In this document: in pieces, positions 4,123 through 33,732 of the stretch
Layout of the letters: the number at the start of each line of letters is the position of its first letter
Position numbering within the stretch: position 1 is the stretch's first letter
Assembly (NCBI GenBank): GCA_945863035.1
Contig: CAMAZH010000001.1
Span: forward strand, 42-64,041
Length of the DNA stretch: 64,000 bases
DNA from: Chitinophaga pinensis
GTDB taxonomy: Bacteria; Bacteroidota; Bacteroidia; Bacteroidales; GCA-2748055
Direction: 5' to 3'
Notes under the pieces: model-generated
Told to the model about the DNA's origin: nothing
The model's input: the letters and a program-made list of their open reading frames with translations, nothing else
Database searches by the model: none
Program-made: the position numbers and the translations under genes

Positions 4123-4233
4123 TCGGAAATAATTGAGTTATATTATTGTGTGCTAAATTGTTTCTCATGTAACCCACATGTATGTGATTTTGTCATAATG
4201 GTCTGAGAATCATTATTTGGAAAACTGTTTTAT

Positions 4234-4271
4234 AAAGTAAAGCTGTCTTATTTTTAAGACAGCTTTACTTT
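4234..4271 (-). terminator. Perfect 17-bp stem / 4-nt loop hairpin between two minus-strand genes
   Basis: aaagtaaagctgtctta (4234-4250), loop tttt, taagacagctttacttt (4255-4271) form an exact inverted repeat. It lies 70 nt downstream of the stop at 4342. A U-tract is convincing only on the plus-strand reading. Confidence 0.45.
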
Positions 4272-4341
4272 TTGTGTGAATACTTAATTCTGGGTCAGAA
4301 ATCCTGCTAAGGATATCCAATGAAACTACCTGAAATAGCAA

Positions 4342-9442: not shown

Positions 9443-9473
9443 TTTAAAAATTGCTCAGATTCTTTAAAAATTG
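9443..9473 (-). promoter_or_regulatory. Candidate operator: 11-bp direct repeat TTTAAAAATTG x2 with a 20-bp period, upstream of the TonB-receptor operon
   Basis: Exact copies lie at 9443-9453 and 9463-9473, in the 342-bp gap between the HTCS stop (9632) and the receptor start (9289). The sequence is AT-rich, so chance occurrence is not excluded. Confidence 0.25.
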
Positions 9474-9631: not shown

Positions 9632-12600
9632 CTAAAGAATGTCAATCTTTTCAGTTTTGAGTTTATTAAGATACTCCGTGGGAGTCAAATTATTTTCCTG
9701 TTTAAAGGCTGTACTAAAGTAGGAAGAGGAGCTGAATCCTGACATATCGCTGATTTCCTGAATGTTATACAACCCATCCTGCATCAGGGATATAGATTTG
9801 TTGATACGATATTTCATAATATAAGAAATAGGAGACAGTTTAGTCAGATTAGTGAATTTTCGATAAAAAGTTGATCGGCTCATATTCATTTTTCCTGCAA
9901 TTAGGGATATTCCCAAATCCGGATTAAGCAATTCAATTTCCAGGATTTGATTAAGCTTTGAAAGAAATTGGACATCCACGAGCGAGTTATCCGCATTTTC
10001 CAGTTTTGGCATCAATCCGTTAAGAAAAATATTCAGAATATGTTCCCGGTTTTTCAACTGAGAATTTATTATATTGAGCAAATAATCAATATTAAAAGGT
10101 TTTGCGATATAGTAATCTGCCCCCGATTTAATACCTTCTATCTGATTCTCTACTTCCGCTTTCGCGGTAAGAAGTATAACAGGAATATGAGAGAATTCGT
10201 TACAGCTTTTAAGGTAACTGGTTAATTCAAGACCATTCATTCCTGACATCATGACATCAGAAATGATAATATCAGGCTGCTTTTGTTTCACCAGCTCCAA
10301 AGCTTCCTGACCATTAAATGCAGAAAAAACCGTATAATATTTCCTGAGTATATTTTTCAGAAATGAATTCAACTGCGGATCGTCTTCTGCAATAATCACA
10401 ACCTTTTTAAAATCGGCAGGAACACTGACCATTTCGGATTCCAGATTGTTCTTTTCCGCCGATAGGTACTTATCATTTGAGTTGTTTTCAGCAAAATATT
10501 GCGTTTCGTAAATAGAATCATCAAGAGGAATAACAAAAGAAAATGCAGAACCCTTATTAAGTTTACTAACAACTTTAATGAAGCCCTTATGGAGTTCTAC
10601 AAGCTTTTTCGTGAAATTTAAACCTATGCCGATGCTTGAAAAATCTTCAGAAGATTTATAACCATTTGTTTTGGACTGATACCTGTTAAATACTGTTTTT
10701 AATTGATAATCATCCATTCCGATGCCATTATCCTCAACAATAATCTCAATATAGTCTGAGGCCAATTCTTGTTCTGTAGTTTGCGCTGATGGGTATGAAT
10801 GTTTCATTTTCTCCCCTGATATTTTCTTTAGGGTAATTTCAATATAGCCTCCCTTACCCGTGTGTTTGATTGCGTTGGATAAAAGATTGCTTAGAATTTT
10901 TTCAATTTTATCCTCATCAAAATATACAATGAAGGCGTTATCTTCAATAAAATCAATATTAATTTGTTTTTCAATTGCCAGAATCTTGAATGTTTTCAAT
11001 ATTTTCTGTATGGATTCATTTAAATCAGCTTTCTCAATCCATAGGCTCATTGTTTCACTTTCCATCATTTTAAATGCCAGTAACTGGTTCACTAGTTTAA
11101 GCAGACGGGAGATATTCAATCCGGCAATCTGAATATATTCTTTCACTTCCCGCGGAATTTTTTCCAGTTTTTCAATATGTTGAATTACTCCTCCGATCAG
11201 TGTAAGTGGAGTTCTGAATTCATGGGCAATATTTGAAAAAAACCTGAGCTTCATTGTATTTATTTCCTTTTCCCTTTCGCGATCCATTTGCTCAAGTTCC
11301 AGCTTTTTCCTGACAACTGCGGCTCTGAAGAGCAGTTGCAGGATTATAAATATAATGCTTATCGTGACTATCACATAAGTTGCCCAAGCCCAGCCAGAAA
11401 ACCATGGAGCAGGTTTAATATTTATCTTGAGGGAAGCGGTTGAATCACTCCAAACGCCATCGTTATTAATTGCTTTTACTTTAAATTCATATCTTCCCCT
11501 TTTAAGATTCGAATAGGAGACGCGGCGCAGATTCCCTGCATCCTGCCATTCCTTATCAAAACCTTTCAGCATAAAGGAATATTTTATATTATGAGAAGAG
11601 AAATAATCGAAAGCGAGGTAATTAATGCTAAAATTCTTTTCTTTATGCGTTAAGGTTATTTCATCCGTAAAACTTAAGCTTTTATTAAGTGTTTTCCCCT
11701 GAGATTCCGGAACCACTTCTTTGTTATTAATATACAGGTTCTCAAGAATAATTTTGGGAGAAGGACTTATGCTAGAGTCAATTTCGTTAGGTCTGAAATA
11801 GGTCAATCCAAAATTACCTCCAAAATAAATCATACCTGACTGGTCCCTAAAAGATGCCTTTTCATGAAATTGAATGTTATTTATGCCTTCATTGGCAAAA
11901 TATTTTTTTACGGCATAATTATCTTTATTAAATTTTATTAGTCCAAATGAAGTGCTCAGCCATAAATTATTCATAAGGTCCTCTTCTATTGCCAATACAT
12001 CGCTGCTGGGTAATCCGTCCTTCATGCTGAAATTGATAATAGAGCGTCGTTTTAAATCCAGTCTTAAAAGACCATAATTATAAGTGCCAAGCCAGAGTAT
12101 TTCATCATCATCAAGGTAAGCAGTAATAACCGACATGAAGCCCGGATCATTTTCCCTGCCCGGTATTTCAATTTTTCTGACCGAAAAATTAAAAACATTC
12201 ATCGCATAAAGCCCATGATCATAACTGGAAAAAAAAACTTCAGAATTATTTAATTGAATAATTCTGGTAATATTGGTACCATATTCTGTAGAATGGAACA
12301 GTTTATTCCCGTCAAGGTCATAGATTAACAGTCCCTGAGTGTTGATTCCTGCAAATATCATTTTATTTGTCTCATGCAATGACACAATTCCATTGTTAGG
12401 TTCCGGTACCTGCAGGGTTTTGAAGTTGGATTCGTTTAAATCAAGTGTATGCAGGCTATAATTCGTGCCTATCCAATATTGGTTTCTTGAGTCGACAAGA
12501 AGAGAACGAATATACGGATATCCCAACTTACTATTATCCCTTGTAAATTTCTTATATGTTTTATCATTCAGGTTGTAAAGTATGAAACCCTCTTTTCTGG

Positions 12601-13807
12601 TAGTGATTATAAGTTTGTCTTTATTTCTGGCTACTCCGGTAATAAACTCATTCTTTGTTACTTCATTAAGTGTTGCGTCGGTATTGAAAATCTTGGTCTG
12701 TTTAAAATGTACATCAATCCCATTATCAAAAGATCCCAACCAGATATTTCCAATTTTATCAATAAAATGAACCATATAGGTATTCGAATGAATACTATAT
12801 GGAACTTGTTCACTGAAAGAAAAATGATCCAGACATTGAGAATTACTGTTAAACTTATATAAACCCTCTGTCTGAGTTCCATACCAATAATCATGAGGAG
12901 CATACTCAAAAATGAAATTTATTTCTTTTCCTTGCAATACATTGGAAAGCTTTTGAAATTTGGAAGGAAAAACGAACTCCTTATTTATGATATCAAAATA
13001 GCTTACTCCCGAATTGGTACCTATAATCAACAGATCATCAGAAGCCTGATGGAAATAATTAATAGTGTTATTCTTTATGGGATCTGCTGTATCCTGTATT
13101 TTGAAAAAATCATATTTACCTGATTTGTTGTTATATACACCTAATCCATTTCCGTTATCAAGGCCGAACCATATTTGTCCGTGATTGTCAGTAAAAATTA
13201 CTGTTATCGACTTCTCTGTATTCCAAGTCCCTATTTGTTCAAGTTTTAAACCATCTTTGGTAATCCTGCATACACCCAGGCCAAGTGTTGCCACGTAAAC
13301 ATTATCTTCATAACCGGTAATACTGGTTACTATTCCTTGATACTCCGGAAAAAGTCGTCCAATTTTACCCATTTCGCAATCATAGTAACAAAGTCCCTTA
13401 TTTGTTCCGATGTAAATTTTTCCATCGATGTGGCTGTATAAACTATTTATATTATTGGAAAAAATGGATGCGGAATCTTCAGGACTGAACAGGTAATGTT
13501 TAAACTCCTGGCCATCATAGCGGTTAAGTCCCCTTCTGGTTGCAAACCACATATAACCTGCTTTATCCTGTGTAATTGAGGTAATATTCAAATTTGAGAG
13601 TCCATCATTAAGGGATATGTTTGAAAACCTCATGACGTCTTGGGCAATAATCACATTATTAAAAAACAAGCCTGCTATTGTCGCCATACAAATTATTAGT
13701 AAATGGCTGTATTCCTTCATGGCGGGTTTATCCTTATTCTGCATTCTATCGGGATTTGTTTTCATCAAATTCGAATCCATATAAATTTCAAGCCTCCTAC
13801 TTTCCAT
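9632..13807 (-). CDS. Hybrid two-component system regulator (beta-propeller/YYY sensor, TM, HisKA, HATPase, REC, AraC-type HTH)
   Basis: 1391 aa. Y_Y_Y block: KYSFMLKGFDKEWQDAGNLRRVSYSNLKRGRYEFKVKAINNDGVWSD. TM segment: WAWATYVIVTISIIFIILQLLF. H-box: FFSNIAHEFRTPLTLI. REC: VVIIAEDDPQLN...DIIISDVMMSGMNGLEL. AraC HTH: MSRSTFYRKF...SSSYFSTAFKQ. The real start is probably the internal MKEYSHLLIICMATIAG near 13720. Confidence 0.9.
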   Translation of the reverse strand: MESRRLEIYMDSNLMKTNPDRMQNKDKPAMKEYSHLLIICMATIAGLFFNNVIIAQDVMRFSNISLNDGLSNLNITSITQDKAGYMWFATRRGLNRYDGQEFKHYLFSPEDSASIFSNNINSLYSHIDGKIYIGTNKGLCYYDCEMGKIGRLFPEYQGIVTSITGYEDNVYVATLGLGVCRITKDGLKLEQIGTWNTEKSITVIFTDNHGQIWFGLDNGNGLGVYNNKSGKYDFFKIQDTADPIKNNTINYFHQASDDLLIIGTNSGVSYFDIINKEFVFPSKFQKLSNVLQGKEINFIFEYAPHDYWYGTQTEGLYKFNSNSQCLDHFSFSEQVPYSIHSNTYMVHFIDKIGNIWLGSFDNGIDVHFKQTKIFNTDATLNEVTKNEFITGVARNKDKLIITTRKEGFILYNLNDKTYKKFTRDNSKLGYPYIRSLLVDSRNQYWIGTNYSLHTLDLNESNFKTLQVPEPNNGIVSLHETNKMIFAGINTQGLLIYDLDGNKLFHSTEYGTNITRIIQLNNSEVFFSSYDHGLYAMNVFNFSVRKIEIPGRENDPGFMSVITAYLDDDEILWLGTYNYGLLRLDLKRRSIINFSMKDGLPSSDVLAIEEDLMNNLWLSTSFGLIKFNKDNYAVKKYFANEGINNIQFHEKASFRDQSGMIYFGGNFGLTYFRPNEIDSSISPSPKIILENLYINNKEVVPESQGKTLNKSLSFTDEITLTHKEKNFSINYLAFDYFSSHNIKYSFMLKGFDKEWQDAGNLRRVSYSNLKRGRYEFKVKAINNDGVWSDSTASLKINIKPAPWFSGWAWATYVIVTISIIFIILQLLFRAAVVRKKLELEQMDREREKEINTMKLRFFSNIAHEFRTPLTLIGGVIQHIEKLEKIPREVKEYIQIAGLNISRLLKLVNQLLAFKMMESETMSLWIEKADLNESIQKILKTFKILAIEKQINIDFIEDNAFIVYFDEDKIEKILSNLLSNAIKHTGKGGYIEITLKKISGEKMKHSYPSAQTTEQELASDYIEIIVEDNGIGMDDYQLKTVFNRYQSKTNGYKSSEDFSSIGIGLNFTKKLVELHKGFIKVVSKLNKGSAFSFVIPLDDSIYETQYFAENNSNDKYLSAEKNNLESEMVSVPADFKKVVIIAEDDPQLNSFLKNILRKYYTVFSAFNGQEALELVKQKQPDIIISDVMMSGMNGLELTSYLKSCNEFSHIPVILLTAKAEVENQIEGIKSGADYYIAKPFNIDYLLNIINSQLKNREHILNIFLNGLMPKLENADNSLVDVQFLSKLNQILEIELLNPDLGISLIAGKMNMSRSTFYRKFTNLTKLSPISYIMKYRINKSISLMQDGLYNIQEISDMSGFSSSSYFSTAFKQENNLTPTEYLNKLKTEKIDIL

Positions 13808-14192: not shown

Positions 14193-17075
14193 TTACTCTT
14201 TGAGAAACTTTTTGGTGTATATTTTATTTTGGCATTTTACAGTTATTATATAAGCTCCTGTTTTTATGTGACTTATATTAATAGAATTGGTTTCAGGGCC
14301 AATAGAATTAAAAGGAAGAACCTTAGACAACAAGGTTCTTCCCTGCAGATCCTTTATTGTGATCCACATTTCATCGGCAAGCTTTTCTGATACATTACCG
14401 TGAAGGATTGACAAAGTTTCGTTGGCGGGATTTGGATAAATACTAAACGATTCTTTCTTTATATTCAAGGTAGAAGTATTTGTTGCCCTTGTGATGGAAT
14501 AAAAATCAAGATCAAGGCCGCCAGTCGCATAAATAATGTAAACACGCAATACCTGAATTCCTGAAGTCAAGTAAATTTTATCTTCATAATTTGAGACTAT
14601 TCCGTCTGTGAATGGTAAATTGATGATGTCTGTAATATTTTTTCCGTCAACTGAAAATTGAATCTTCTGGTTTTCCAAGAGGGTAAAATATTGAATATTT
14701 AAAAGATAATATCCGGAGCTGTCAACATCTATTGTATATTCCATCCATTCATCGGTTGCCAACCATCCGGTCATATATCCACTGCCAGCTGCATGAATAT
14801 CCACTCCTTCATCGATTCTGTAAGCACCCCCTTCATTTATCGAAGTCTTGTCAAGATAAGCAACGTCAATTCCTCCCGCGTCAAAGTCTTCAGCTTCCAC
14901 TTTGGATGGTATTGAAACAGGTGTTCCATGATATGGTTTTTGATCGCCCGTTTCCTCATCATCCGGATCCGGCTCAGGATAGGCTTCTTGCCTGCCCACT
15001 TCTTCTATCAGCCATTTGGCAAATCCGGTTGTTGAATGGGGATCGGTTTCAGGCCCTACAGGTGCCTGTGCACCACAATCATGAGGAAAGTTATTGAGAT
15101 AAAAATGCATTCTGTCGTGGTGTTTGGGCATTCCTGCCTCCCAATATTTATATAACCAGTCTCTTACTACATCATCGTAATACTGTGAACAGCTCTGTGA
15201 TAGCCAGGGGCCATAATAGAATACATAGTCAAGTTCATTGGCAAGGGTCCACCGGATGCCTTTGCCAGTAGCTTGTAAATCTTTTTCTATTCCCTGATCT
15301 AACGGCCAGTGCACGTTATATTGGTGAGATTCAAGGCACACCCCATCCATGCTTTTTATGATAGACCTTGCCTCCGGGCTTTGGTAGTAAAAGCTGGGAC
15401 TGATACACATCTGAATGAGTTTATAGTTGTTGTGTTCTATGATGCCTGCTGTAAATGCATTCTGAAACACTTGTCTGAAATCATCCACGTCACGCTGGTA
15501 AAGAATACGGCTATCCTCCGGGAAAGGACCCCATTTGCCCGAACCATAGAGTTCCGCCTCACGACAGATAAGAATATGCTTCACGGAAAATCCATATTTT
15601 TCAACTTGCCTGATCTTTTGAACCAAAGGGTTAGTATTGGGATTGGTATCGATCCAGTCCCTGTCGAATGGCAGGTAATGCTCAAAAAATGCCTGTCTTG
15701 TCCGGAAGTCGCCTTTAAAATTACAGTTAAAGTCATTAGGTGTGATCACATCCATGTGACTGGCAACAAAAGGATATTGCCCGGCTAAATCAACAAAGTA
15801 TCCTCCGGGGTTGTTGGGCCAAAGATTTTTGTCAATGTCCGTCATGGTTCCCCTGGGCAAAGGACGGATTCCTACTTTGGAATTCCCTGCAAAAAGCTCG
15901 GTTATGGCTGTATCCAATGGAGTTCCGGATTCATCAAGGGCAATGGCCTTTATGTTGTAATAACCCGCTTCTATGGCTGAGATTACATGTTCATAGGGAG
16001 CAGTCTCATCTTCACTAAGTTTCTGATCATTATGATAAAACGCTACTTTTCTTACCGAATCCGCAATGTCTTCACTGACAGATACAACAAGGCTGGCATC
16101 CGCTCCAGGCTTGTAACTTCCTGTTTCTCCAGGTATTGAGAAAGAGACAGGGGGTGTATAAGGGATGATTTTAAGGTTGTTGATATTTAGCACATCCTTA
16201 CAATAATCAGCAACCAGTCTTAATACAAAAATACCCTGCGGGAGTTCAATTTCCTGACGGATAGAAGTCCATGCACCGCTTGTGTTGTCAGTAATAAATG
16301 GTTCGCCTATGTTTTGGCCATTAAGTTCCAGATGGATTTGATTGCTATCAGCATGTGAGGCTATGCGCATATCAAAGAAATACTTGAACTTCCCAGGAAC
16401 TTTGATCATATATTCCATCCATTCCTTGCTTTCCATCCTGACATGATAGTTGCCAACCGTATCGGTTGTGGTTTTGATATCAACATCTCCTGTTAACCTG
16501 TATTGATTTCCCTCATTTCCCGGGGTGTTATCATGAAAAGCATTGCCTTCGCCTCCCAGGTTGTAATTTTCGGCCTCCATGGTGACAGGAAGTACAATGT
16601 CAGCACTCGCATAGGTACCAGTCAGTTTGATGAAGTCGATGTGAACACGGCCAGAGCTGCCGGCCGGATCGAAACGTAAACTTTTAATCGTACCTTTCCA
16701 ATCCGGGTTTTTGCTAAGATCCAGTATATAATAGCGCATACTGTCATCATTGGCTATTACAGACATGGAAGTGAAAGACAGTCCCGCCGACGTTGTCCAG
16801 AACAAATTAGCCCCTGTACCGGTTGTGCTATTCTGCATTCGTATTATAAAATATTTATAATCCAAAGCAGGAATATTAAGGGAGCCGGGAGATCCAATAT
16901 AGGGATCATTGCCGTTGATATTGAGTTGCAAAATCCCATCGCTTACACTCCCTGTTACATGGTTGTCAAACGACCATCCTTCCTGGTTGGTACTGAAATT
17001 CCATAGGGTTGTCTGGCCAACTAGTGAGAGTACAACCAGAAGAAGTGAAAATGTAATCAAAAAAGCTTTATTCAT
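14193..17075 (-). CDS. T9SS-secreted multidomain protein: 'DPY' module, CBM6/35-like, Ig-like, unassigned ~330-aa core, CBM6/35-like, T9SS CTD
   Basis: 960 aa. N-terminal module: TLWNFSTNQEGWSFDN...LQLNINGNDPYIGSPG. First CBM6/35-like module: MEAENYNLGGEGNAFHDN...EWMEYMIKV. Second: VEAEDFDAGGIDVAYLDK...DEWMEYTIDVDSSGYY. CTD: FSIYPNPANETLSI...GAYIITVKCQNKIYTKKFLKE. The core (about DFNCNFKGD to FAKWLIEEV) has no family I recognise. Confidence 0.8.
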   Translation of the reverse strand: MNKAFLITFSLLLVVLSLVGQTTLWNFSTNQEGWSFDNHVTGSVSDGILQLNINGNDPYIGSPGSLNIPALDYKYFIIRMQNSTTGTGANLFWTTSAGLSFTSMSVIANDDSMRYYILDLSKNPDWKGTIKSLRFDPAGSSGRVHIDFIKLTGTYASADIVLPVTMEAENYNLGGEGNAFHDNTPGNEGNQYRLTGDVDIKTTTDTVGNYHVRMESKEWMEYMIKVPGKFKYFFDMRIASHADSNQIHLELNGQNIGEPFITDNTSGAWTSIRQEIELPQGIFVLRLVADYCKDVLNINNLKIIPYTPPVSFSIPGETGSYKPGADASLVVSVSEDIADSVRKVAFYHNDQKLSEDETAPYEHVISAIEAGYYNIKAIALDESGTPLDTAITELFAGNSKVGIRPLPRGTMTDIDKNLWPNNPGGYFVDLAGQYPFVASHMDVITPNDFNCNFKGDFRTRQAFFEHYLPFDRDWIDTNPNTNPLVQKIRQVEKYGFSVKHILICREAELYGSGKWGPFPEDSRILYQRDVDDFRQVFQNAFTAGIIEHNNYKLIQMCISPSFYYQSPEARSIIKSMDGVCLESHQYNVHWPLDQGIEKDLQATGKGIRWTLANELDYVFYYGPWLSQSCSQYYDDVVRDWLYKYWEAGMPKHHDRMHFYLNNFPHDCGAQAPVGPETDPHSTTGFAKWLIEEVGRQEAYPEPDPDDEETGDQKPYHGTPVSIPSKVEAEDFDAGGIDVAYLDKTSINEGGAYRIDEGVDIHAAGSGYMTGWLATDEWMEYTIDVDSSGYYLLNIQYFTLLENQKIQFSVDGKNITDIINLPFTDGIVSNYEDKIYLTSGIQVLRVYIIYATGGLDLDFYSITRATNTSTLNIKKESFSIYPNPANETLSILHGNVSEKLADEMWITIKDLQGRTLLSKVLPFNSIGPETNSINISHIKTGAYIITVKCQNKIYTKKFLKE

Positions 17076-17120
17076 TTTTTAAAGTTATTTCAGAATTTAA
17101 TATATTTTCAATGGTCTGAA

Positions 17121-17252
17121 CAATAACTATATCCAACTGAACCCGATATTTCCCATAGTAAATAATTATTTAGAGATATTCTATTTAATATCTGTTTAAA
17201 AATGGATGATTTATTTCCAGGAAAGAGGTTTACCGCCCATCGCTCGATTCTT
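17121..17252. repeat. Left arm of a 132-bp inverted repeat (partner at 18867-18998)
   Basis: The reverse complement of 17121-17252 aligns without gaps to 18867-18998, with 116/132 identities by hand alignment. The gene-proximal 26 nt are identical (tcgggttcagttggatatagttattg). It ends 45 nt upstream of the start codon at 17075. Confidence 0.8.
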
Positions 17253-17594
17253 AAATGCACCACACATAAGTTATATAGTCTGTCCCGCTCAAATGGGAGT
17301 TTTTACCATGTAACCTGTTGCTTCATAGTTCAAATCCTCATTAAGCAGACTTATTCAAGCTGAGGTATGTCCTTTAAGTAGTTAAAGCCAACTGCTAAAA
17401 ATAATGAAAGGTGATATAATTAGCATTACACAATTTGGGCATCCGTTTAAACTGAATGGCGGTTATGTTGATGATAAAGGAGATGTTAATTGATAAAAAT
17501 AAATATTATGAGATTTCATTAAAAGAGACATGAACAAAGCTTTGGCTCGTCAAGCTGAATCATTCGCCGGGTAGGCTAGAGTTTCTGATTTCAG

Positions 17595-18059
17595 CTACCA
17601 GACTTTAATTTTAATCCTGCCGATTCCTGGCTTTTCAAAGGGATCAGCCGAAGGACTGCCTGGATTCCTTTTTGCACCAGTGTAATCTGTCGTTATTTCA
17701 ATTTTCGATCCGTCAGGATTCATGAAGGGAGCATTAACAAACATGGTTGTGCCCAAGCGTGTAGTTGTTATCAATGTCTGGCAGGACTCAGTGATTAGGG
17801 AATCGATGTTCATTTCAAGATAGACAATTTCGTTTTCAGAGATCAGGCTAATCGAAGGGTCAAACTCTGGAAAAACTGCGGCCTCGGGTTCAGCGAAATA
17901 TGGTTTTGCAACCTTAAGGTAAACATTGCCTTCTGCGAGCATAGGCTGTGCGGTTGTATCATATACGTTCAGACCGTAACCTGATTTTCCTCACCAGACA
18001 GTTGGAACTCAAAATGTATTACCTATAGTAGTGCCAGCGACCAGAATATTATTGATTTG
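17595..18059 (-). pseudogene. Decayed C-terminal fragment of a right-handed beta-helix protein, paralogous to the gene at 62454 to beyond 64000
   Basis: Reverse-strand reading gives QINNILVAGTTIGNTF*VPTVW*GKSGYGLNVYDTTAQPMLAEGNVYLKVAKPY...LITTTRLGTTMFVNAPFMNPDGSKIEITTDYTGAKRNPGSPSADPFEKPGIGRIKIKVW. This matches YYNNIFAPKDTNDTDYLFVHEHWGSLDYSLNVYENNIELPMFIESNVYYQGTRPY...LITTEFLGKAIITGCYFENPDGTPITIDTDYLGNKRNVNNPVPGPFEIDASGLVKIKIW in the intact paralog. In-frame TGA stops lie at 18009-18011 and 17991-17993. The first ~400 residues of the family are missing. Confidence 0.75.
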
Positions 18060-18160
18060 CCAGGTAACATGGTGAAAAAAATTTGTAAGTCACTGTTGAT
18101 TGTTATTCTTCCTTTTGGATAGATCGTTTTTATTGAAATTTTGGAAATGAAAATTTTGCA

Positions 18161-18168
18161 TATATTTG
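18161..18168 (+). promoter_or_regulatory. Bacteroidota sigma-A type -7 box (TAnnTTTG) upstream of the ECF sigma gene
   Basis: TATATTTG at 18161-18168 lies 22 nt upstream of the ATG at 18191. A possible -33 TTTG at 18140-18143 gives a 17-nt spacing, slightly short of the usual 19-21 nt. Confidence 0.35.
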
Positions 18169-18190
18169 TTTTTTCACCATAATAATTTTA

Positions 18191-18775
18191 ATGCTCCAAC
18201 CATCTGAAGATCATAGCATAATAAAAAAGCTTAGAAAGGGTGACGTGCTTTCATTTGATATGGTGTATGAAAAATACCATAAAAGGGTGTATTATTTTGC
18301 TCTTGGTTACCTTAAGAGCAGGGAGGATGCAGAAGAAGTAGTACAGGAAGTTTTTCTAAACTTATGGAAATCAAGGGATCAGATCAAGGAACATTTTGTC
18401 TTCAGCCGGTACCTGTTCCGGATTACTTTTAACTCCATTCATAAGGTATTCCGTAAGCAAACCTCCGATAGGAAACATCTTGAACAATTCATGAAAGATA
18501 TTGTCATTGAAGATGATTCAACCAATATCGATATTGAATATGACAACCTGCTGGAAACAGCCAATTCCTACATTGAAAAACTGCCTGCCAGACAAAAGCT
18601 TGTTTTTCAATTGAGTATTAGCGAACACCTTACCAATGAAGAGATCGCTAAGAGATTCAATATTTCGAAAAAGACAGTGGATAATTATATTAGTGATGCC
18701 AGGGCTTTTCTGAAAAAATCATTCATTGATGGCAGATTAATATCTGTACTATTCTTTTATCTGTTCCTGAAATAA
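18191..18775 (+). CDS. ECF-type RNA polymerase sigma-70 family factor
   Basis: 194 aa. Region 2 reads EDAEEVVQEVFLNLW. Region 4 HTH reads LPARQKLVFQLSISEHLTNEEIAKRFNISKKTVDNYISDARAFLKK. Confidence 0.9.
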   Translation: MLQPSEDHSIIKKLRKGDVLSFDMVYEKYHKRVYYFALGYLKSREDAEEVVQEVFLNLWKSRDQIKEHFVFSRYLFRITFNSIHKVFRKQTSDRKHLEQFMKDIVIEDDSTNIDIEYDNLLETANSYIEKLPARQKLVFQLSISEHLTNEEIAKRFNISKKTVDNYISDARAFLKKSFIDGRLISVLFFYLFLK

Positions 18776-18866
18776 ACAGAATTTTTGTTGTCAATTTTTT
18801 CTACTTTCCGAATGGATCACATGGACATGACGCCATTAGCTTCAGTTTAACTGAGATGAGATCTCT

Positions 18867-18998
18867 AAGAATTATGCGATGGGCGGTAATCCTCTTTTTT
18901 GGTAATAAATCATCCGTTTTTAAATAGGTGTTAAGTAGAATATTTCTAAATAAGTATTTATTATGGGAAATTTCGGGTTCAGTTGGATATAGTTATTG
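18867..18998. repeat. Right arm of the 132-bp inverted repeat (partner at 17121-17252)
   Basis: See the left arm. It ends 119 nt upstream of the anti-sigma start at 19118. It fills most of an unusually long 342-bp sigma/anti-sigma spacer. Confidence 0.8.
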
Positions 18999-19117
18999 TT
19001 AAGGTTATAGAGATAAAAAGAAAATTCAGGATTTTTTTTATGGCGGGTAAGATTCAGGTGAGTTAACTATGAAACTGGACGGAATTTCCTTTCCAGCTTC
19101 ATAACTTCAAGAAAAAT

Positions 19118-20203
19118 ATGCAAGATTCAGCAAATAAGGTTAATAAAGATCTTTTAGAAAGATACAACAAGGAGAAGGTAACTTCTGAGGAAAGAGCAAT
19201 TGTAGAGCGATGGTTCGCCGACAATAATCTTAAGGATCAATTGTCAATATCCTCAATTAATTTATGGGAAAACATTCCTTTGGATATTGATTTACCGGAA
19301 CTTGAAGGGCACCGGATCCTGGACAGGATTCACCATCAGATAAACAGAGAACAATCCGTATTTGTCACTGAAAGCAGGAAGCGATCAGTAGTTCTCAGAT
19401 ATCTTGGCAGGGTCGCTGCAATCCTTTTATTACCGGTTCTTCTGACCACTGTTTTTTTATACTATAAGATCAATGCAATTTACAATGAAGGTGCTTATTC
19501 AGAGATCTATGCTCCGGCAGGGGCCAGCACAACTTTTCATCTTCCGGATGGCTCATCAGGCTGGCTAAATGGAGGATCTTCTATAAAATTCCCAGCTCAT
19601 TTTCATAAAAAAAACCGTTGTATTGAGCTTAGCGGGGAAGCTTATCTGAACGTAACTGAAGATCCCTGCAGGCCATTTATAGTAACTACTTCAAACATTA
19701 AAGTGAGAGTAATTGGAACCTCATTCAATATAATGGCATATGATGATGATTTGAAAACAGAGGTGACATTGGAAAGCGGAAGTGTTGAAGTTTTGAAAAA
19801 GCGAAATAAAAACACTGTGTGTATTGGGAAATTGAAACCTGATCAGGCTCTGATTTATTACCATAAATCAGATTCTTCCTATATGATCTCAGTAAAAAGT
19901 TCCGATAAAACATCATGGAAAGACGGGAAACTGGTTTTCCGGTACGATCCTTTGTGTGAAGTTATAAACAAGATTAATCGGTGGTACAATGTTGATATTA
20001 AAATTATGGATCCGGAATTGAATGATCATAAATACTATGGTACTTTCCAGAACGAAACACTGTCTGAAGTTTTAAAACTTCTTCAGTATACTGCACCGAT
20101 ACGATATAAGGATATGGGAAGACAAAAGAAGCCGGATGGTACCTATGATAAAAGGATCATTGAATTATACAGTAAAAAACAGAATAGTAAAACACATCAT
20201 TAG
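19118..20203 (+). CDS. FecR-family anti-sigma factor / transmembrane sensor
   Basis: 361 aa with one central TM segment (VAAILLLPVLLTTVFLYY). FecR block: TTFHLPDGSSGWLNGGSSIKF...GEAYLNV...PFIVTTSNIKVRVIGTSFNI. The C-terminal domain carries LSEVLKLLQYTAPIRY. Confidence 0.9.
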   Translation: MQDSANKVNKDLLERYNKEKVTSEERAIVERWFADNNLKDQLSISSINLWENIPLDIDLPELEGHRILDRIHHQINREQSVFVTESRKRSVVLRYLGRVAAILLLPVLLTTVFLYYKINAIYNEGAYSEIYAPAGASTTFHLPDGSSGWLNGGSSIKFPAHFHKKNRCIELSGEAYLNVTEDPCRPFIVTTSNIKVRVIGTSFNIMAYDDDLKTEVTLESGSVEVLKKRNKNTVCIGKLKPDQALIYYHKSDSSYMISVKSSDKTSWKDGKLVFRYDPLCEVINKINRWYNVDIKIMDPELNDHKYYGTFQNETLSEVLKLLQYTAPIRYKDMGRQKKPDGTYDKRIIELYSKKQNSKTHH

Positions 20204-20345
20204 TATTTATTATAAAACCATTTGCCTATGCAATAAGATATATCAAATAAAAAAGGAAAGCGCGGGCACGCTTCCCTTTCAATTTAGTAAGCTTTTCCAA
20301 AGCAATTCAAACATTGTTTTTTACTAACTAAATTTATGCAAAGAT

Positions 20346-23300
20346 ATGAAAAAATTTTCCAGGAAATCAGGAGAATATTTTACTAAAATACCCTCTTGTA
20401 AAATACTTAAACATATGAGAAATACTTTATTGTTACTACTCATAACTGTCTTTCAGACCTACGCTGAAAACTCCTATTCCCAAAGTACCTTGTTGACCCT
20501 TAATTTGAAGGAGGTGACTTTAGCAAATGCTCTTGAAAAGATAGAGAGTCAAAGTGAGTTTTACTTTTTATTCAATGCAAAACTCATAGACATTGAAAGG
20601 ATAGTATCTATTTCTGCGAACAACCAAAAAGTGGTTTCCATTCTTGACGATCTTTTTAATAATTCGAATGTGGAGTATATGGTTTATGACCGGCAGATAG
20701 TCTTATCCCCGCGGGAATATATTGCAAGTCTAAAGGCTGAATCTAAGCAGCCCATCACCATTACCGGTATCGTATCCAACGAAAACGGTGAGCCTATGGT
20801 TGGAGTTACCGTGATGATTAAAGGAACATCACAAGGAACAATTACCGATGTGACCGGCAAATTTTCTATCTCCAACGTTCCGGAGGATGCAATATTGGTA
20901 TTTTCGTTCGTGGGGATGAGGACAACGGAGTTGGTTCTTGGGGGTCAAACAAGCGTCAGTGTAACAATGTTGGAAGATATGATAGGAATTGAAGAGGTTG
21001 TGGCGATCGGGTACGGAACCCTTTCCAAAAGAAATATATCTGGTTCAATTACAAATATCACTGAAAAAGAATTTAACAAGGGTGTGACACAAACAGCTGC
21101 TGACCTATTGCAGGGAAAAGCGGCAGGTTTAACTATTACTACGGAGACTGGAGATATTACCGCACAGCAAACCATGCGCTTAAGAGGTACTTCTTCCTTA
21201 ACTGGTTCAAGTGCTCCATTTGTAGTGATTGATGGTGTTCCGGGGATGGATTTAAACTCAGTGGCACCCCAGGATATAGAATCTATTAGCATTTTAAAAG
21301 ATGCATCTTCTGTTGCAATTTACGGTTCGCGTTCCGCCAGCGGGGTAATCCTGATAACCACCAAAAAAGGCAAAAAGGGGCAGGAAAGTGTTCAATACAG
21401 TTCTTATGTGGCGGTTGATATTGCTTCAGATAAACCTGAATTGCTCTCAGCTGCTGAATGGCGTGAATATACAAAAGACCAGAACGTCTCCGGGCTTGAC
21501 CTTGGTGCTGATACCGATTGGTTTGATGAGATCATGAGAGTGGGTATTTCTCATAACCACAATCTTTCAATTACAGGAGGCATAGAAGGCGGAAGCTACC
21601 GGGCATCAATCAACTACCTTGACAGGCAGGGAATTATGAAAGATAATGAGATGGAACGTTATAACAGTATGTTCTCTTTGAACAAAAGAGTTTTAAATGA
21701 CAATTTAGATATAACCCTGACAGGAGGTTCTGTGTTAAGCAATTTTACTCCAACGAATTCTTACAATACAGTATTGGCATACAACATGTTACCTGTTTAT
21801 CCGGTAAAAAATCCGGATGGTTCATGGTTCTCTATTCAGGAATGGGAACAGGGAAACCCGGTACACAATATCGAAGAGAATAGGAACCTTAATAAAACCA
21901 GTTTATTATACGGAAATGTAAAAGCTGTGATGGAAGTCGTTCATGGACTGAACGCTGGTATTAATCTGTTTAAACAACGGAATTCGACGGATAATTCGTT
22001 TTATAATGCATCAACTACACAGGCCGGAAGACAGGTCGGAGGATATGCAAACCGGGGGAACCAGTTGTGGAATAAAGATTTGATAGAGTTAACACTTGAT
22101 TACTCGGCGGAATTTGGTCAGCACGACATAAAAATGTTAGGAGGGTATTCATATGAATATAATACCTACGAGTCAGTTAGAGCTTCAAACAGGACATTTA
22201 TTTCAGATATGTTCGAGTATAATAACCTGGGAGCAGGTGAGAACCTGTTCGCAACGGACGTAAACTCTTATAAAAATATGAGTAAGTTGATTTCCGTATT
22301 CGGGAGGTTAAACTATACCTTTCATGGAAAGTATATCCTGACTGCTACCATAAGGCGGGATGGTTCCTCAAAATTTGGAGATAACAATAAATGGGGAACT
22401 TTCCCATCCATTTCCGGGGCATGGAGGTTGTCTGATGAACCGTTGATAAAAGATATGGGGTTGTTTGATGAATTAAAAGCCCGGATTGGTTATGGTGTGG
22501 TGGGTAACCAGGATGGTATCGGACCCTATACTTCTATTGCCCTGTATGGGCTTGGTGATGAGTATTTTGACAATGGGAAATGGAGAAATACTTACAAGTA
22601 TGCACAAAATGATAACCCTGATCTAAGATGGGAACAAACAGCATCATTTAATCCGGGTATTGATTTCTCTGTACTAAATTATCGATTGAGTGGTTCCGTG
22701 GATTATTATATCAAGAACACCAGTGATTTACTGTATGTGTATAATGTGCCTGTTCCTCCATACCTATATCCCACAATGCTGGCAAATGTTGGGGATATTT
22801 CGAATAAAGGGATAGAAGTTGTATTAAGCGGAACGATAATCAACAGCTCTGACTTTAAATGGACTGCCACTGTAAATTTTGCGCACAACAAAAATATGAT
22901 CGACAGATTATCCAATGATGTCTATCAAACTGATTACATTAAAACAGGTTTTATCGATTTAAGGGGATCTGGGTATCTGACAAGTCATATTGTTGAAGAA
23001 GGCCAGGAAGTTGGCACATTTTATAATCTTAGATGTCTTGGTCTGGATGAAAATGGAAAGTTTATTATAGAAGACACCCATGAAGATGGAGTAATCAATA
23101 ATCTCGATTATACATACATTGGTAATGCAATGCCTCGGTTTACTTATGGTATACTGAATACATTGTCCTATAAAAAGATTGATTTTTCATTTTTCATACG
23201 AGGCTTATATGGAAATGATGTCCTAAATAGTCCCAGGGTACAATACAGCAACCCAAAATGGCTTCCCGGAGGAAATGTATTGCGGGAAGTACTGACAAAT

Positions 23301-23579
23301 GGAATAACCGATGATCCGTTATTCTCTTCATACTTTATTGAAGATGGTTCATTCCTACGAATGGATAATGTGAACTTGGCCTACAATTTTGGTTCACTGA
23401 GCAGGACCGGAATTAAGGGCCTTAAAGTTTACGCTACGGCACAAAATCTTTTTATAATTACAAAGTTTACAGGCCCTGATCCCGAAGTGCGGATGAGTGG
23501 ATTGAATCCTGGCGAACTTGACAAATACTTTGTGCCTAAGCCAAGAACTTTTTCAATTGGTATTGATGTGAAATTTTAA
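20346..23579 (+). CDS. susC: SusC/RagA-family TonB-linked outer-membrane transporter with an N-terminal STN signalling domain
   Basis: 1077 aa. STN block: LNLKEVTLANALEKIESQSEFYFLFNAKLIDIERIVSISANNQKVVSILDDLF. CarboxypepD_reg block: ITGIVSNENGEPMVGVTVMIKGTSQGTITDVTGKFSI. The plug contains SILKDASSVAIYGSRSASGVILITTKKG. The terminal residue is F. It is immediately followed by susD. Confidence 0.9.
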   Translation: MKKFSRKSGEYFTKIPSCKILKHMRNTLLLLLITVFQTYAENSYSQSTLLTLNLKEVTLANALEKIESQSEFYFLFNAKLIDIERIVSISANNQKVVSILDDLFNNSNVEYMVYDRQIVLSPREYIASLKAESKQPITITGIVSNENGEPMVGVTVMIKGTSQGTITDVTGKFSISNVPEDAILVFSFVGMRTTELVLGGQTSVSVTMLEDMIGIEEVVAIGYGTLSKRNISGSITNITEKEFNKGVTQTAADLLQGKAAGLTITTETGDITAQQTMRLRGTSSLTGSSAPFVVIDGVPGMDLNSVAPQDIESISILKDASSVAIYGSRSASGVILITTKKGKKGQESVQYSSYVAVDIASDKPELLSAAEWREYTKDQNVSGLDLGADTDWFDEIMRVGISHNHNLSITGGIEGGSYRASINYLDRQGIMKDNEMERYNSMFSLNKRVLNDNLDITLTGGSVLSNFTPTNSYNTVLAYNMLPVYPVKNPDGSWFSIQEWEQGNPVHNIEENRNLNKTSLLYGNVKAVMEVVHGLNAGINLFKQRNSTDNSFYNASTTQAGRQVGGYANRGNQLWNKDLIELTLDYSAEFGQHDIKMLGGYSYEYNTYESVRASNRTFISDMFEYNNLGAGENLFATDVNSYKNMSKLISVFGRLNYTFHGKYILTATIRRDGSSKFGDNNKWGTFPSISGAWRLSDEPLIKDMGLFDELKARIGYGVVGNQDGIGPYTSIALYGLGDEYFDNGKWRNTYKYAQNDNPDLRWEQTASFNPGIDFSVLNYRLSGSVDYYIKNTSDLLYVYNVPVPPYLYPTMLANVGDISNKGIEVVLSGTIINSSDFKWTATVNFAHNKNMIDRLSNDVYQTDYIKTGFIDLRGSGYLTSHIVEEGQEVGTFYNLRCLGLDENGKFIIEDTHEDGVINNLDYTYIGNAMPRFTYGILNTLSYKKIDFSFFIRGLYGNDVLNSPRVQYSNPKWLPGGNVLREVLTNGITDDPLFSSYFIEDGSFLRMDNVNLAYNFGSLSRTGIKGLKVYATAQNLFIITKFTGPDPEVRMSGLNPGELDKYFVPKPRTFSIGIDVKF

Positions 23580-23597
23580 TTTAAATTAACTACTACC

Positions 23598-25148
23598 ATG
23601 AATAAATATATAAATGCGCTGCTTATTGTTTTAATAATTGCAGCTTTTTCCAATTCATGTACAGATCTTGAAGAGACTGTTTACAGTGAGGTTGCAGTTT
23701 CCGAATTTGGTTCTGCTCCGGAACAAATCGATGCATTGGTAGCATCAATATACAGCACTTTAAAGTTCCATGTTCTTAGTTGGGATTCATACACTTGCCG
23801 TGATGAACTTGCCGGAGATATGATGGCAATTCCTGGATTTAAGGGAGGTGACTGGGGTGAGCCAATGTTTAGTGAAGCCATGAAGCATACTTGGGACGCA
23901 AGCAGCACCGGTTATGATGCTGCATATAATTACCCAACTAGCAGCATAGCATTGTGTAACCAGATTTATTACATGATTGAAACAAGCCCGGGAATATCCG
24001 AAGCAAACAAAGTGAGGTTTCTTTCTGAAATCAGAGGAGTACGGGCCTTCTGGTACTATATTTTGTGCGATCAATTTGGGAATGTTCCTATTGTTACTGA
24101 TTTCCTTGATCGGTCTCAACCTGAGACTAACTCCCGCAGCGAGGTTTATGATTTCATTATTAAAGAACTTATTGAGATAAAAGATAGTCTTAGATCTGAT
24201 GTTCCTGGATTGCAAAGTTACGGAAGGTTTACAAAGGGTGCAGCCTATGCTCTGTTGGCCAAAATGTACCTGAATGCCGGGGTATACAAACCGGAAGGCG
24301 GCTCTAAATGGGAAGAATGTATTGAAGCCTGCAACGGGGTAATGGCATTACCCTATGTACTTGAAGGAGTCTGGAAAAAGAATTTTACTCCTGACAATCA
24401 TTTATCTGAAGAGGCGATCCTTTCAGCTGCGTTTAAAGCTGGTGGCAGCGGAATTGAGAATATTATAGCGTTAAATACTCTTCACTATTTAGATCCAATT
24501 GCACTGGGGCTGAATATCAGCCCATGGAATGGAATTGCTGCAAACCCTGACTATGTTAAATCCTTCGACACACTTGATATAAGATATGAAGGTTCTTTCC
24601 TCGTTGGACCAATGATTGATCCGGCGACCGGTGAAGTATTGGTAACCTCTCACGGCCGCCCCCTCATTCACACGGTTGAGATGGTTCTTAATGAGGTAGA
24701 TGGAGATGGTTGGGGATGGATAAACCAGGAAGAAGGTGCACGCGTTGCTAAATGGGATTATGAACCAGGGCTTAGTACCTCCATGGAAAATGATATCCAT
24801 ATTTTCAGGCTTGCGGATATTTATCTGACCAAGGCTGAAGCATTGCTCAGAAGCGGGGGAAGTATCGCAGTTGCCACAGATCTTGTTAATGCTATTCGCG
24901 CCAGGGCATTTCCGGGTAAACCCGAAAAGTTATACAGTTCTGTTACACTGGATGATGTTTACAACGAACGCAGGTTAGAATTTGCATGGGAAGGGTTCAC
25001 CAGACAGGATATGATCCGGTTTGGGACGTTCCTTTTACCTCGGACACCTTTTAAACCCTACCAAAGCGATTCAAAATACTTGTTATATCCGATACCCCAA
25101 TCAGCAATTGATGCAAATAATAAATTGAAACAAAATCAGGGATATTAA
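23598..25148 (+). CDS. susD: SusD/RagB-family nutrient-binding outer-membrane lipoprotein
   Basis: 516 aa. Lipobox: IIAAFSNSC. SusD blocks: AYALLAKMYLNAG, FRLADIYLTKAEALL, ERRLEFAWEGFTRQDMIRFG. The start lies 18 nt after the susC stop. Confidence 0.9.
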   Translation: MNKYINALLIVLIIAAFSNSCTDLEETVYSEVAVSEFGSAPEQIDALVASIYSTLKFHVLSWDSYTCRDELAGDMMAIPGFKGGDWGEPMFSEAMKHTWDASSTGYDAAYNYPTSSIALCNQIYYMIETSPGISEANKVRFLSEIRGVRAFWYYILCDQFGNVPIVTDFLDRSQPETNSRSEVYDFIIKELIEIKDSLRSDVPGLQSYGRFTKGAAYALLAKMYLNAGVYKPEGGSKWEECIEACNGVMALPYVLEGVWKKNFTPDNHLSEEAILSAAFKAGGSGIENIIALNTLHYLDPIALGLNISPWNGIAANPDYVKSFDTLDIRYEGSFLVGPMIDPATGEVLVTSHGRPLIHTVEMVLNEVDGDGWGWINQEEGARVAKWDYEPGLSTSMENDIHIFRLADIYLTKAEALLRSGGSIAVATDLVNAIRARAFPGKPEKLYSSVTLDDVYNERRLEFAWEGFTRQDMIRFGTFLLPRTPFKPYQSDSKYLLYPIPQSAIDANNKLKQNQGY

Positions 25149-25444: not shown

Positions 25445-26614
25445 ATGAATAGAAAAAAATTTTTATCAAATCTTGGAATGATGGGGACCGCTGCTATGAT
25501 TGCTCCGTCAATGATGGCTTCATCTCCATCTGTTAAATTAATCAATACATCCGGTAAGAAAATCAGAGTTGGGGTAATCGGATGTGGCAGTGTATCCGCA
25601 TATTATCTAAAGCACCTATCAAAATGTCCGTATGCCGAAATAGTAAGCCTTTGCGACATTATCCCGGAGAGGGCACAAAACCGGGCAAGGGAATATAAGG
25701 TAAACAGTTGGTATCCGCATATTGATAAAATGCTTGCGGGTGTTGACTTTGATTTGTTTGTAAACCTCACGGATATGCAGGAGCATTATCGTTTGAACGT
25801 TATTGCTCTTAATTCAGGTAAGCATGTATGGAGTGAAAAACCAATGGCCAGTACTTACAATGAGGGCTCTGAGTTGATAAAACTCGCTTCACAAAAAGGA
25901 GTCAGGATCTGGGGAGCACCCGTTGTTGTTAATAGTCCTCAGTTTGCTTTTATCGCAAAACAGATCAATGAGGGCAATTTTGGCCGGATTTCTGCTGCGC
26001 ATGGTTGCTATGGTCACCTTGGGCCATCGTGGTCCTCTTTTTTTTATGAAAAACTTGGCGGCAGCATTCCCGACTTAGCTGTTTATAATATCACAAGCCT
26101 TACCGGATTGTTGGGGCCTGCCGTTTCTGTTTTGGCAATGACAAATATTATCTCCCCAACTCGTGAGATCGATAACAAAGGAACCGTTAAAGTTACTGAA
26201 GAAGATAATTCTCATATCCTTCTGGAACACCAGAGTGGGGCTATTTCGCATATTCAGAGCGGGTTTAACTATACGATGGCTCATAGTTATGATAGTGAGG
26301 AAATCTCTACTATTTCCATTATCGGCACAAAAGCCAGGATGGATATGATTGGGTATGATTGGGACCCCTTAGCTGTTGATGTGGCAACTCCCGCTATACA
26401 AAAGATGGAGCGTATGGCTACAGACCCGGGTACCTATGTCTGGGAGGAGGGGGCATCTGTAATCTGCGAATTCCTGGCTACAGGAAAGGAACCGCTATTC
26501 AGTGCCGGCCACGCATTGCATGCAGTAGAGATTATGGAAGCCTCAAGGAAATCCCAGGAGACAGGGAAACGTATCTGGCTGAAATCTGAATTTGTCTGGC
26601 CAGTAGTTACATAG
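25445..26614 (+). CDS. Exported Gfo/Idh/MocA-family NAD(P)-dependent oxidoreductase (tandem copy 1)
   Basis: 389 aa. The N-terminal signal MNRKKFLSNLGMMGTAAMIAPSMMA is TAT-like but has RK in place of RR. Rossmann block: KIRVGVIGCGSVS. Also present: GKHVWSEKPMA. Confidence 0.85.
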   Translation: MNRKKFLSNLGMMGTAAMIAPSMMASSPSVKLINTSGKKIRVGVIGCGSVSAYYLKHLSKCPYAEIVSLCDIIPERAQNRAREYKVNSWYPHIDKMLAGVDFDLFVNLTDMQEHYRLNVIALNSGKHVWSEKPMASTYNEGSELIKLASQKGVRIWGAPVVVNSPQFAFIAKQINEGNFGRISAAHGCYGHLGPSWSSFFYEKLGGSIPDLAVYNITSLTGLLGPAVSVLAMTNIISPTREIDNKGTVKVTEEDNSHILLEHQSGAISHIQSGFNYTMAHSYDSEEISTISIIGTKARMDMIGYDWDPLAVDVATPAIQKMERMATDPGTYVWEEGASVICEFLATGKEPLFSAGHALHAVEIMEASRKSQETGKRIWLKSEFVWPVVT

Positions 26615-26719
26615 TGTATGAAATATGCAATCAGTGGTTATGGATAAAGTAAAATGTGAAATAAAATACCACATGAACATCCAGTTTAAATTGTTTAATA
26701 AAATTCAAAGACTAATAAA

Positions 26720-27898: not shown

Positions 27899-27929
27899 TT
27901 TATAGAAGTAGGGAAGGGCAAATGGATTT

Positions 27930-30709: not shown

Positions 30710-30731
30710 ATAAATAATTGCAATAAATAAT

Positions 30732-31565: not shown

Positions 31566-31693
31566 GATGGAAAGTCAATTGATTACTAAAACTTGTGGAA
31601 ATAATAGATATTTTTAGTTTCATGAATAAAAGCATTAGAATGAATTTTTTGTAGACTCTGTTGTAGCTGAACTAACTTAAAATAAAAACTAAG

Positions 31694-32743: not shown

Positions 32744-32949
32744 GCCATTAGTTGTTGCGAAAAAAACCGGAAAAGAGGTAAATAGTTAAAGTGGTTTTAA
32801 ATTCTAATTGGTATAAAAATGAAACTTCCATGCCACAATGTTTAATTCAGATGGAGGAGGCACAAAAGGACATGATAATTACGCATAAATCAGGAAGCTA
32901 GGCGCATGGAAGTTCCATGAGTCCAACTAATTAAATAAACTATTTTCGA

Positions 32950-33690: not shown

Positions 33691-33732
33691 AAGACAAATA
33701 ATTTTAAACCCTGTTTCTAAAATTTCCACATT

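Follow-up and report, generated by a model that had tools for sequence, protein, structure and literature searches.

Inverted duplication of a putative ECF-type promoter region may bring a secreted carbohydrate-binding protein gene into the regulon of an adjacent sigma/anti-sigma/SusC locus in a Bacteroidota genome

Why should the gene for a sigma factor lie between the two arms of a long inverted repeat, with each arm placed just upstream of a different, outward-facing gene? The question is raised by a 64,000-nt stretch of an uncultured member of the Bacteroidota (contig CAMAZH010000001.1 of assembly GCA_945863035.1; the whole stretch is referred to below as the window), in which a gene for an extracytoplasmic function (ECF) sigma factor (18191..18775, plus strand) is flanked by a left arm at 17116..17253 (minus strand) and a right arm at 18866..19003 (plus strand). 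The left arm precedes a gene for a 960-aa protein that carries carbohydrate-binding modules (CBMs) and a signal for the type IX secretion system (T9SS), and the right arm precedes an operon of fecR, susC and susD. An initial annotation of this DNA offered three readings of the repeat, namely a shared promoter or leader that places both transcription units under one regulator, a substrate for inversion of the sigma cassette, or two copies of an element resembling a miniature inverted-repeat transposable element (MITE). The evidence assembled here favors a version of the first reading, in which a 138-bp copy of an ECF-type promoter region probably brings the gene for the secreted CBM protein into the regulon of the adjacent sigma/anti-sigma/SusC system.

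Read as its reverse complement, the left arm matches the right arm without gaps at 121 of 138 positions (88% identity), and 1612 nt separate the two. Within the 4.19-Mb genome the pair has a BLAST E value of 1e-40 with nothing else near it, and BLAST at a word size of 7, regular expressions and a hidden Markov model (HMM) all return two copies only, which answers the copy-number check proposed in the initial annotation. That annotation had described slightly shorter arms (the reverse complement of 17121-17252 against 18867-18998, with 116/132 identities and no gaps), a count that is exact on recomputation; its distances of 45 nt and 119 nt from those arm ends to the start codons are also correct, and become 40 nt (960-aa gene) and 114 nt (fecR) from the extended ends. 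Between the arms lie an ECF sigma gene and a beta-helix pseudogene and nothing else, as had been stated. The identical gene-proximal block reported earlier also exists, with a length of 28 nt instead of 26. This block, TCGGGTTCAGTTGGATATAGTTATTGTT, is the longest perfect run between the arms, and it carries no weight alone because random placement of 17 mismatches in 138 nt yields such a run with P = 0.28; the 12% divergence is distributed fairly evenly over the arms. The weaker second block of homology that had been suggested (17445-17473 against 18820-18852) is marginal, as local alignment of the inner flanks scores 20 compared with 14.6 +/- 2.4 for shuffled sequences, a score matched by 24 of 500 shuffles (P about 0.05), and the block was not used further. 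The layout of the repeat is not an assembly artefact. A 145-kb contig in ENA from a second assembly contains both arms, with 2 differences in 8585 positions. In other samples, Logan contigs extend across the left arm and both of its flanks (run X6) and across the inner (X1) and outer (X10) junctions of the right arm.

Comparison with homologous loci indicates which of the two arms is the older. The right arm aligns collinearly with the spacer between the sigma gene and fecR in two sister-species loci (L047 and L053; alignment A1), and in the same alignment the homology of the left copy is confined to the arm and stops exactly at its ends. The right arm is thus native sequence at its orthologous position and not an insertion. 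The closest FecR homologs are those of L047/L053 (82% identity), G042 (64%), G014 (63%), L051 (62%), L050 (56%) and L048 (53%), where G denotes genomes and L loci, and an order-wide FecR search added one new locus only. The order of the fecR-susC-susD operon is shared with L047, G014 and G042. In all of these FecR-homolog loci the gap between the sigma gene and fecR measures 227-438 nt (342 nt in the window). Because orthologous loci that lack the repeat have gaps of this size, and because those gaps hold the motif described below, the 342-nt gap is ancestral, and the earlier proposal that the right arm accounts for the separation of the sigma and anti-sigma genes is wrong as it stands.

The native spacer contains a conserved motif of fixed spacing, located in the gene-proximal ~65 nt of the arm and reading TTCTAAAT-N13-GGGAA-N14-TGGATAT. 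On the plus strand of the right arm, box A (TTCTAAAT, 18944..18951) is invariant in five orthologous loci and stands at a fixed 13 nt from box B (GGGAA, 18965..18969), which is invariant in the orthologs, as is box C (TGGATAT, 18984..18990). The complete tripartite motif is exact in L047/L053, G042, G014 and L048, and L051 retains box B and box C but not box A. Within the family (91 genomes), exact matches to the motif are confined to this genome (G000, twice), G014 and G042, all of which encode a close FecR ortholog. A degenerate form, GGGWR-N14-KGGMTHT, occurs 5' of fecR, on the fecR strand and with the same 14-nt spacing, in 11 homologous loci, two of the matching loci (L015 and L066) having been inspected only after the pattern was fixed; the reversed pattern, used as a control, has no match in 66 loci. 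The motif sits about 110-130 nt 5' of fecR and strictly co-occurs with this ECF/FecR clade. Additional copies in relatives amount to matches with two mismatches at the level of the control, and the two that were inspected lie inside open reading frames (ORFs). A promoter HMM built on five orthologous fecR-upstream cores, with the left arm left out, recovers only the two arms from the 4.19 Mb (E = 3e-11 and, for the left arm, 1.3e-9), the next match having an E value of 2.3. At the corresponding position, the distant homologs L012 and L042 carry TAAAT-N16-CGT.

The position and form of this motif are those expected of an ECF-dependent promoter. The right arm lies between the end of the sigma gene at 18775 and the start of fecR at 19118, the motif occupies the same position in 11 homologous loci, its bipartite form with fixed spacing is unlike the housekeeping -33/-7 promoter, and a box of the housekeeping type is present at the sigma gene instead. 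GGGAA is a candidate -35 element and (T)GGATAT a candidate -10 element, with about 16 nt between GGGAA and GATAT, an assignment that would place the start site about at the proximal end of the arm. On this reading, the right arm as delimited by the inverted-repeat search would comprise the promoter core with about 75 nt upstream of it, and the repeat as a whole would be a promoter with about 125 nt of upstream DNA and would exclude the fecR leader. The first reading of the initial annotation is therefore the best supported in its promoter part and needs refinement in its leader part, since a conserved hairpin just 5' of fecR (19069..19102, plus strand; identified by folding) falls outside the repeat, and the left copy lacks it; the arms are better described as promoter plus upstream DNA ending about at the predicted transcription start. 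A scan for Sigma-70-type promoters and terminators, which is unsuited to Bacteroidota, gave nothing above background, and no description of a promoter motif for this sigma group was found in the literature. The only metatranscriptome run with this DNA yielded one 151-nt contig, which falls inside fecR and is uninformative on the arms.

The sigma gene itself seems to be transcribed from a promoter of another kind. The encoded 194-aa protein belongs to the ECF sigma factors of the polysaccharide utilization locus (PUL) type of Bacteroidetes (Pfam Sigma70_r2/r4_2; TIGR02985 Sig70_bacteroi1 at 138.6 bits, with a cut-off of 126.4). The octamer TATATTTG at 18161..18168 (plus strand), 22 nt 5' of its start codon, matches the -7 consensus of the Bacteroidetes housekeeping sigma factor, TAnnTTTG. 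It is the single occurrence of that consensus on both strands of 16900-19300, the arms having none, and the same octamer precedes the sigma gene in L047, L053 and G014.

Regulatory systems of this general type are known from other bacteria. In the FecI/FecR/FecA system of Escherichia coli, the signal of a TonB-dependent transducer is relayed by FecR to an ECF sigma factor of the FecI kind, which acts at a dedicated transport-gene promoter; this FecI-dependent promoter lies in front of fecA, and fecI and fecR share one operon. The signalling logic of the window locus is the same, whereas the location and sequence of the motif differ from those of the FecI/PvdS systems, as the motif lies between the sigma gene and fecR and reads GGGAA-N14-TGGATAT in the close clade (TAAAT-N16-CGT in some distant homologs). 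A closer parallel is found in the PULs of Bacteroides thetaiotaomicron, where housekeeping promoters precede 24 of 26 ECF-sigma genes, the anti-sigma and susC genes are transcribed from ECF-dependent promoters, and the ECF sigma factor BT3993 cross-activates BT4403-07 through a related promoter (Martens et al. 2009; PMC2709373). The window locus resembles these PULs in its gene order (sigma, FecR-type anti-sigma, extended SusC, SusD), in the housekeeping -7 box at the sigma gene, in the separate non-canonical promoter region of the anti-sigma gene, and in the presence of a second unit with a related promoter. Its layout fits the trans-envelope-signalling model of PUL control, with a non-canonical motif where an ECF-dependent promoter would be expected. 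Unlike in the pair BT3993/BT4403-07, the related promoter of the window is a 138-bp near-copy that is inverted, lies 1.6 kb away, and precedes a single gene for a T9SS-secreted CBM protein and not a paralogous PUL.

A regulator other than the adjacent sigma factor could in principle read the arms, either a different sigma factor or a DNA-binding protein such as the hybrid two-component regulator encoded at 9632-13807 (minus strand). The candidate target of this regulator is a direct repeat of TTTAAAAATTG at 9443-9473 (two copies 20 bp apart, 5' of a TonB receptor operon), and each arm has one similar site in its distal half (17195-17205 and 18914-18924), while the TTTAAAAAYKG-like pattern has only 41 occurrences in the genome with both strands counted. 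The tie between the motif and this particular sigma factor also rests on inference. The two arm sites, however, represent one independent occurrence because the arms are copies of each other. The link to the regulator looks weak, as the TTTAAAAA-type site is not kept in L047, where the matching DNA is part of a hairpin, and falls within the fast-evolving distal half of the left arm. The strict association of the motif with one ECF/FecR clade, at a near-constant distance from fecR, and the lack of a housekeeping TAnnTTTG box in the arms argue further against control by another factor, which is accordingly considered rather unlikely.

If the right arm is the native promoter region, the left arm is best understood as its derivative. 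The left arm shares more identity with the right arm (88%) than either shares with L047. Two orthologs of the 960-aa gene, in L054 (70% identity; a locus of the study that also yielded L047) and L055 (74-80%), lack the motif in their upstream regions and have different neighbourhoods. These comparisons point to a recent, lineage-specific copy of the right arm. The copy lies 1.0 kb from the sigma gene, ends 40 nt 5' of the start codon, and precedes a gene outside the PUL. That gene (14193..17075, minus strand) encodes a protein with CBM6, Ig and CBM35 domains and a T9SS tail (Pfam CBM_6, Big_7, CBM_35_2 and Por_Secre_tail; matches to CBM6 structures in the PDB), and neither the promoter scan nor the TAnnTTTG search recognised any other promoter-like element 5' of it. 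The remnant on the inner side of the arm, separated from it by about 340 nt of non-coding DNA, is a 5'-truncated beta-helix pseudogene with two in-frame stops (17595..18060, minus strand), which retains the C-terminal ~155 codons for a parallel beta-helix protein of the DUF1565/Pel9A type. A 639-aa beta-helix protein in L055 matches it over residues 486-638 (35% identity, E = 5e-25), and the C-terminus of a 488-aa ORF elsewhere in the window (62454-63920) is 36% identical to it. In L055 a beta-helix gene of this family lies upstream of the 960-aa ortholog on the same strand, and the pseudogene of the window lacks its 5' two-thirds, which suggests an earlier operon, since truncated, in which the 960-aa gene came after other genes. 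The pseudogene was also considered as an ortholog of the sigma-adjacent gene in G014 and rejected, the latter encoding an AAA/DUF4143 ATPase.

On the minus strand of the left arm, boxes B (GGGAA, 17150..17154) and C (TGGATAT, 17129..17135) are intact, and box A (CTCTAAAT, 17168..17175) has one change from the consensus. A strain that is ~3.5% diverged provides a 317-nt contig over this arm with 11 differences, all of them at or beyond 17175: seven in the distal 79 nt of the arm and four in the inner flank, with none in the proximal 59 nt of the arm, the 5' untranslated region or the first 48 nt of the gene. The left core is thus conserved between strains, and the distribution of the changes has a P of about 0.02 within the arm and of about 0.006 over the non-coding part. 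One of the strain variants, G>A at 17175 (plus-strand letters), restores TTCTAAAT in left box A.

These observations bear on a further possibility, that the left arm is inactive and decaying, a by-product left behind when a rearrangement truncated the beta-helix gene and placed the 960-aa gene beside the PUL. The even 12% divergence and the non-significant 28-nt identical block would agree with a neutral copy, as would the changes at two otherwise invariant motif positions and the derived state of three of the four core changes on the left copy; the pseudogene and the differing contexts of the 960-aa orthologs indicate that the region has been rearranged. Conversely, the strain variants spare the promoter-proximal part of the arm, the leader and the gene start and accumulate in the distal arm and the inner flank, one of them repairs box A, boxes B and C have been retained, and the 960-aa gene has no other promoter-like element. 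On balance, a neutral by-product seems fairly improbable.

Several of these findings nevertheless weigh against the proposed promoter duplication. Of the two ortholog-invariant positions altered on the left copy, one is the initial T of TTCTAAAT and the other the T three bases 3' of GGGAA, so that this copy may be weaker or decaying. Three of the four core differences are derived on the left. A pairing of box A with box B (TAAAT-N16) is a possible alternative reading of the promoter, and pairings of the TAAAT-N16 type are those of PvdS/FecI-type promoters. Finally, the true ECF-dependent promoter could lie in the spacer between fecR and susC (20204-20345), which is more conserved than the flanking genes (among orthologs with a FecR identity of 63-82%; alignment A2) and contains a hairpin, GGAAAGCG-N-CGCTTTCC, followed by AGCTTTTCCAAAGCAAT. 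A second promoter, perhaps even the principal ECF-dependent one, might reside in this spacer, or else a processing site or an attenuator.

Taken with these reservations, the preferred explanation is that the right arm would be the native promoter of fecR-susC-susD and would be read by the adjacent ECF sigma factor, with the sigma gene itself transcribed from its housekeeping TAnnTTTG promoter. After the split from the nearest sampled relatives, a 138-bp piece reaching from about -125 to about the transcription start would have been copied in inverted orientation and placed before the 960-aa CBM6/CBM35 gene, which is itself 3' of the truncated beta-helix remnant. A substrate passing through the SusC transducer would then release the sigma factor from FecR, and the free sigma factor would activate both the uptake operon on the right and the secreted protein on the left, the latter presumably a glycan-binding or glycan-degrading product. 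ECF regulons grow when the cognate promoter appears before further genes, and promoter copying of this kind is most likely an ordinary route of regulon growth and not a DNA switch or a mobile element. If confirmed, the locus would document such growth without adding a new type of mechanism. The PUL-associated sigma factors of group ECF240 (TIGR02985-type) are abundant in Bacteroidota, but the promoters that they read are essentially undefined; according to the 2021 reclassification (PMC7826278), none of the group had been studied experimentally. The present locus supplies a candidate consensus, which, if confirmed, could be used for regulon prediction for this sigma clade in uncultured sediment Bacteroidota. 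The natural duplication further predicts a regulon of two operons, combining SusC/D uptake for an unusual oxidative sugar pathway with a T9SS-secreted CBM protein.

The same geometry could also be viewed as a device for inversion of the 1.6-kb sigma cassette, either as a switch resembling phase variation or by occasional RecA-mediated flipping, since homologous recombination could in principle act on a 138-bp inverted repeat whose arms are 1612 nt apart. The invertible promoters of Bacteroides, which underlie phase variation of capsules and surface proteins (the Mpi/Tsr systems), have near-perfect repeats of about 20-30 bp, a promoter inside the invertible segment, and a need for a recombinase. 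The window locus is similar to these in having inverted repeats around a short segment near genes for surface or secreted proteins in a Bacteroidota genome, and differs in the length (138 bp) and identity (88%) of the arms, in the placement of the candidate promoters inside them, and in the lack of a nearby recombinase gene. The arm identity of 88% and the longest perfect run of 28 nt argue against ongoing exchange, there being no sign of homogenisation. Tyrosine recombinases (PF00589) have four matches in the assembly and none on the 132-kb contig (C1) that carries the locus, and serine recombinases (PF00239) have none in the 92%-complete assembly. With regard to orientation, which the initial annotation had suggested checking, contigs from several samples (9 DNA runs) contain reference junctions only and no inversion joints, a result obtained from short Logan contigs, from which rare variants are dropped and which cannot exclude rare inversion. 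Inversion would also leave the pairing of promoters and genes unchanged, because both candidate promoters lie in the arms and face outwards. The second reading of the initial annotation thus finds no support in the arm identity, the recombinase content of the contig or the observed orientation, and inversion is regarded as highly improbable. Just as doubtful is the related idea that a sigma gene between outward-facing target promoters forms a recombination-competent cassette in which rare RecA-mediated inversion would let read-through from the sigma promoter prime either side. Were it true, subpopulations would differ in their basal states, and inverted duplication could spread the promoter to more neighbours.

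Two similar non-coding segments of 138 bp might also be copies of a MITE-like mobile element or of a gene for a structured RNA. This reading is refuted for the MITE and hardly tenable overall. The right arm belongs to the native, orthologous sequence of the locus, the genome contains exactly two copies, no arm copies are found in 40 relatives, the exact 26-mer is absent from the GTDB species genomes, and JGI metagenomes contain only the orthologous site in the sister species. Neither terminal inverted repeats nor target-site duplications are visible in the sequence. Weak matches of 26-32 nt in relatives are attributed to chance, the two that were inspected (L004 and L005) being inside coding regions. 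A structured RNA was rejected because the arms have no Rfam match at E<=1 and fold on either strand no better than shuffled sequences (z-scores of -1.3 to +0.8). Guided transcription was considered as well. RNA-guided transcription by dCas12f-sigmaE takes place 5' of susCD operons (Hoffmann et al. 2026; PMC13472631), and the window locus is comparable in that it involves a Bacteroidota ECF sigma factor, sites 5' of susCD, and a targeting sequence common to several loci. The common sequence in the window is, by contrast, a 138-bp duplication with a bipartite motif and not a guide match of 13-14 nt. A dCas12f target was rejected, as the genome has no PF07282 (Cas12f/TnpB TNB) domain, no ORF of suitable size for dCas12f lies next to the sigma gene, and there is no guide RNA candidate.

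Other features of the locus are of interest in their own right. The hairpin at 19069-19102 is preceded by a GTTTAGGTWAGTT-like motif and has a counterpart in L047 (1781-1816). Folding predicts a strong hairpin 5' of fecR in 7 homologous loci (including L012, L014, L016 and L042-L044), and none in G014, G042 or the left-arm copy. Because the distant loci have different sequences at the same hairpin position, the structure and not the sequence seems to be conserved; a leader or attenuator and a palindromic operator are both possibilities. A different, near-perfect hairpin, AATCCGGCTTTTAAA ... TTTAAAAGCCGGATT, lies directly 5' of the promoter core in L047 (1597-1642) and at the equivalent place in L053, and might terminate the sigma transcript there; in the window, the distal half of the arm, which is poorly conserved, takes this place. 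In four non-source metagenome runs (X2, X5, X6 and X7) that cover most of 16900-19500, positions 18905-19300 of the window are uncovered, and contigs end at 18902 and 18905 in two of these runs. Low depth, unitig breaks or a divergent allele could explain the gap. Run X10, from another study, contains a 299-nt contig (18885-19183) identical to the window.

The operon downstream of the right arm consists of fecR (19118-20203), a susC with an N-terminal STN-like extension (20346-23579) and susD (23598-25148), all on the plus strand and assigned with Pfam/NCBIfam. The PUL continues 3' of susD (25445-35259) with genes for three GFO/IDH/MocA oxidoreductases, a 3-keto-disaccharide hydrolase, an MFS transporter, an MttB-like protein, a ROK kinase and a SIS protein, an order that is kept in L047. 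No obvious glycoside hydrolase or evident secreted depolymerase is among the annotated PUL genes, and the gene content looks like that of an oxidative (3-keto) route of glycoside cleavage. In L048, whose FecR is 53% identical, a gene for a 320-aa T9SS-secreted Laminin_G_3 protein (4197-5159) stands between fecR and susC, and this gene inside a homologous operon provides a precedent for T9SS cargo under sigma/anti-sigma control of this type.

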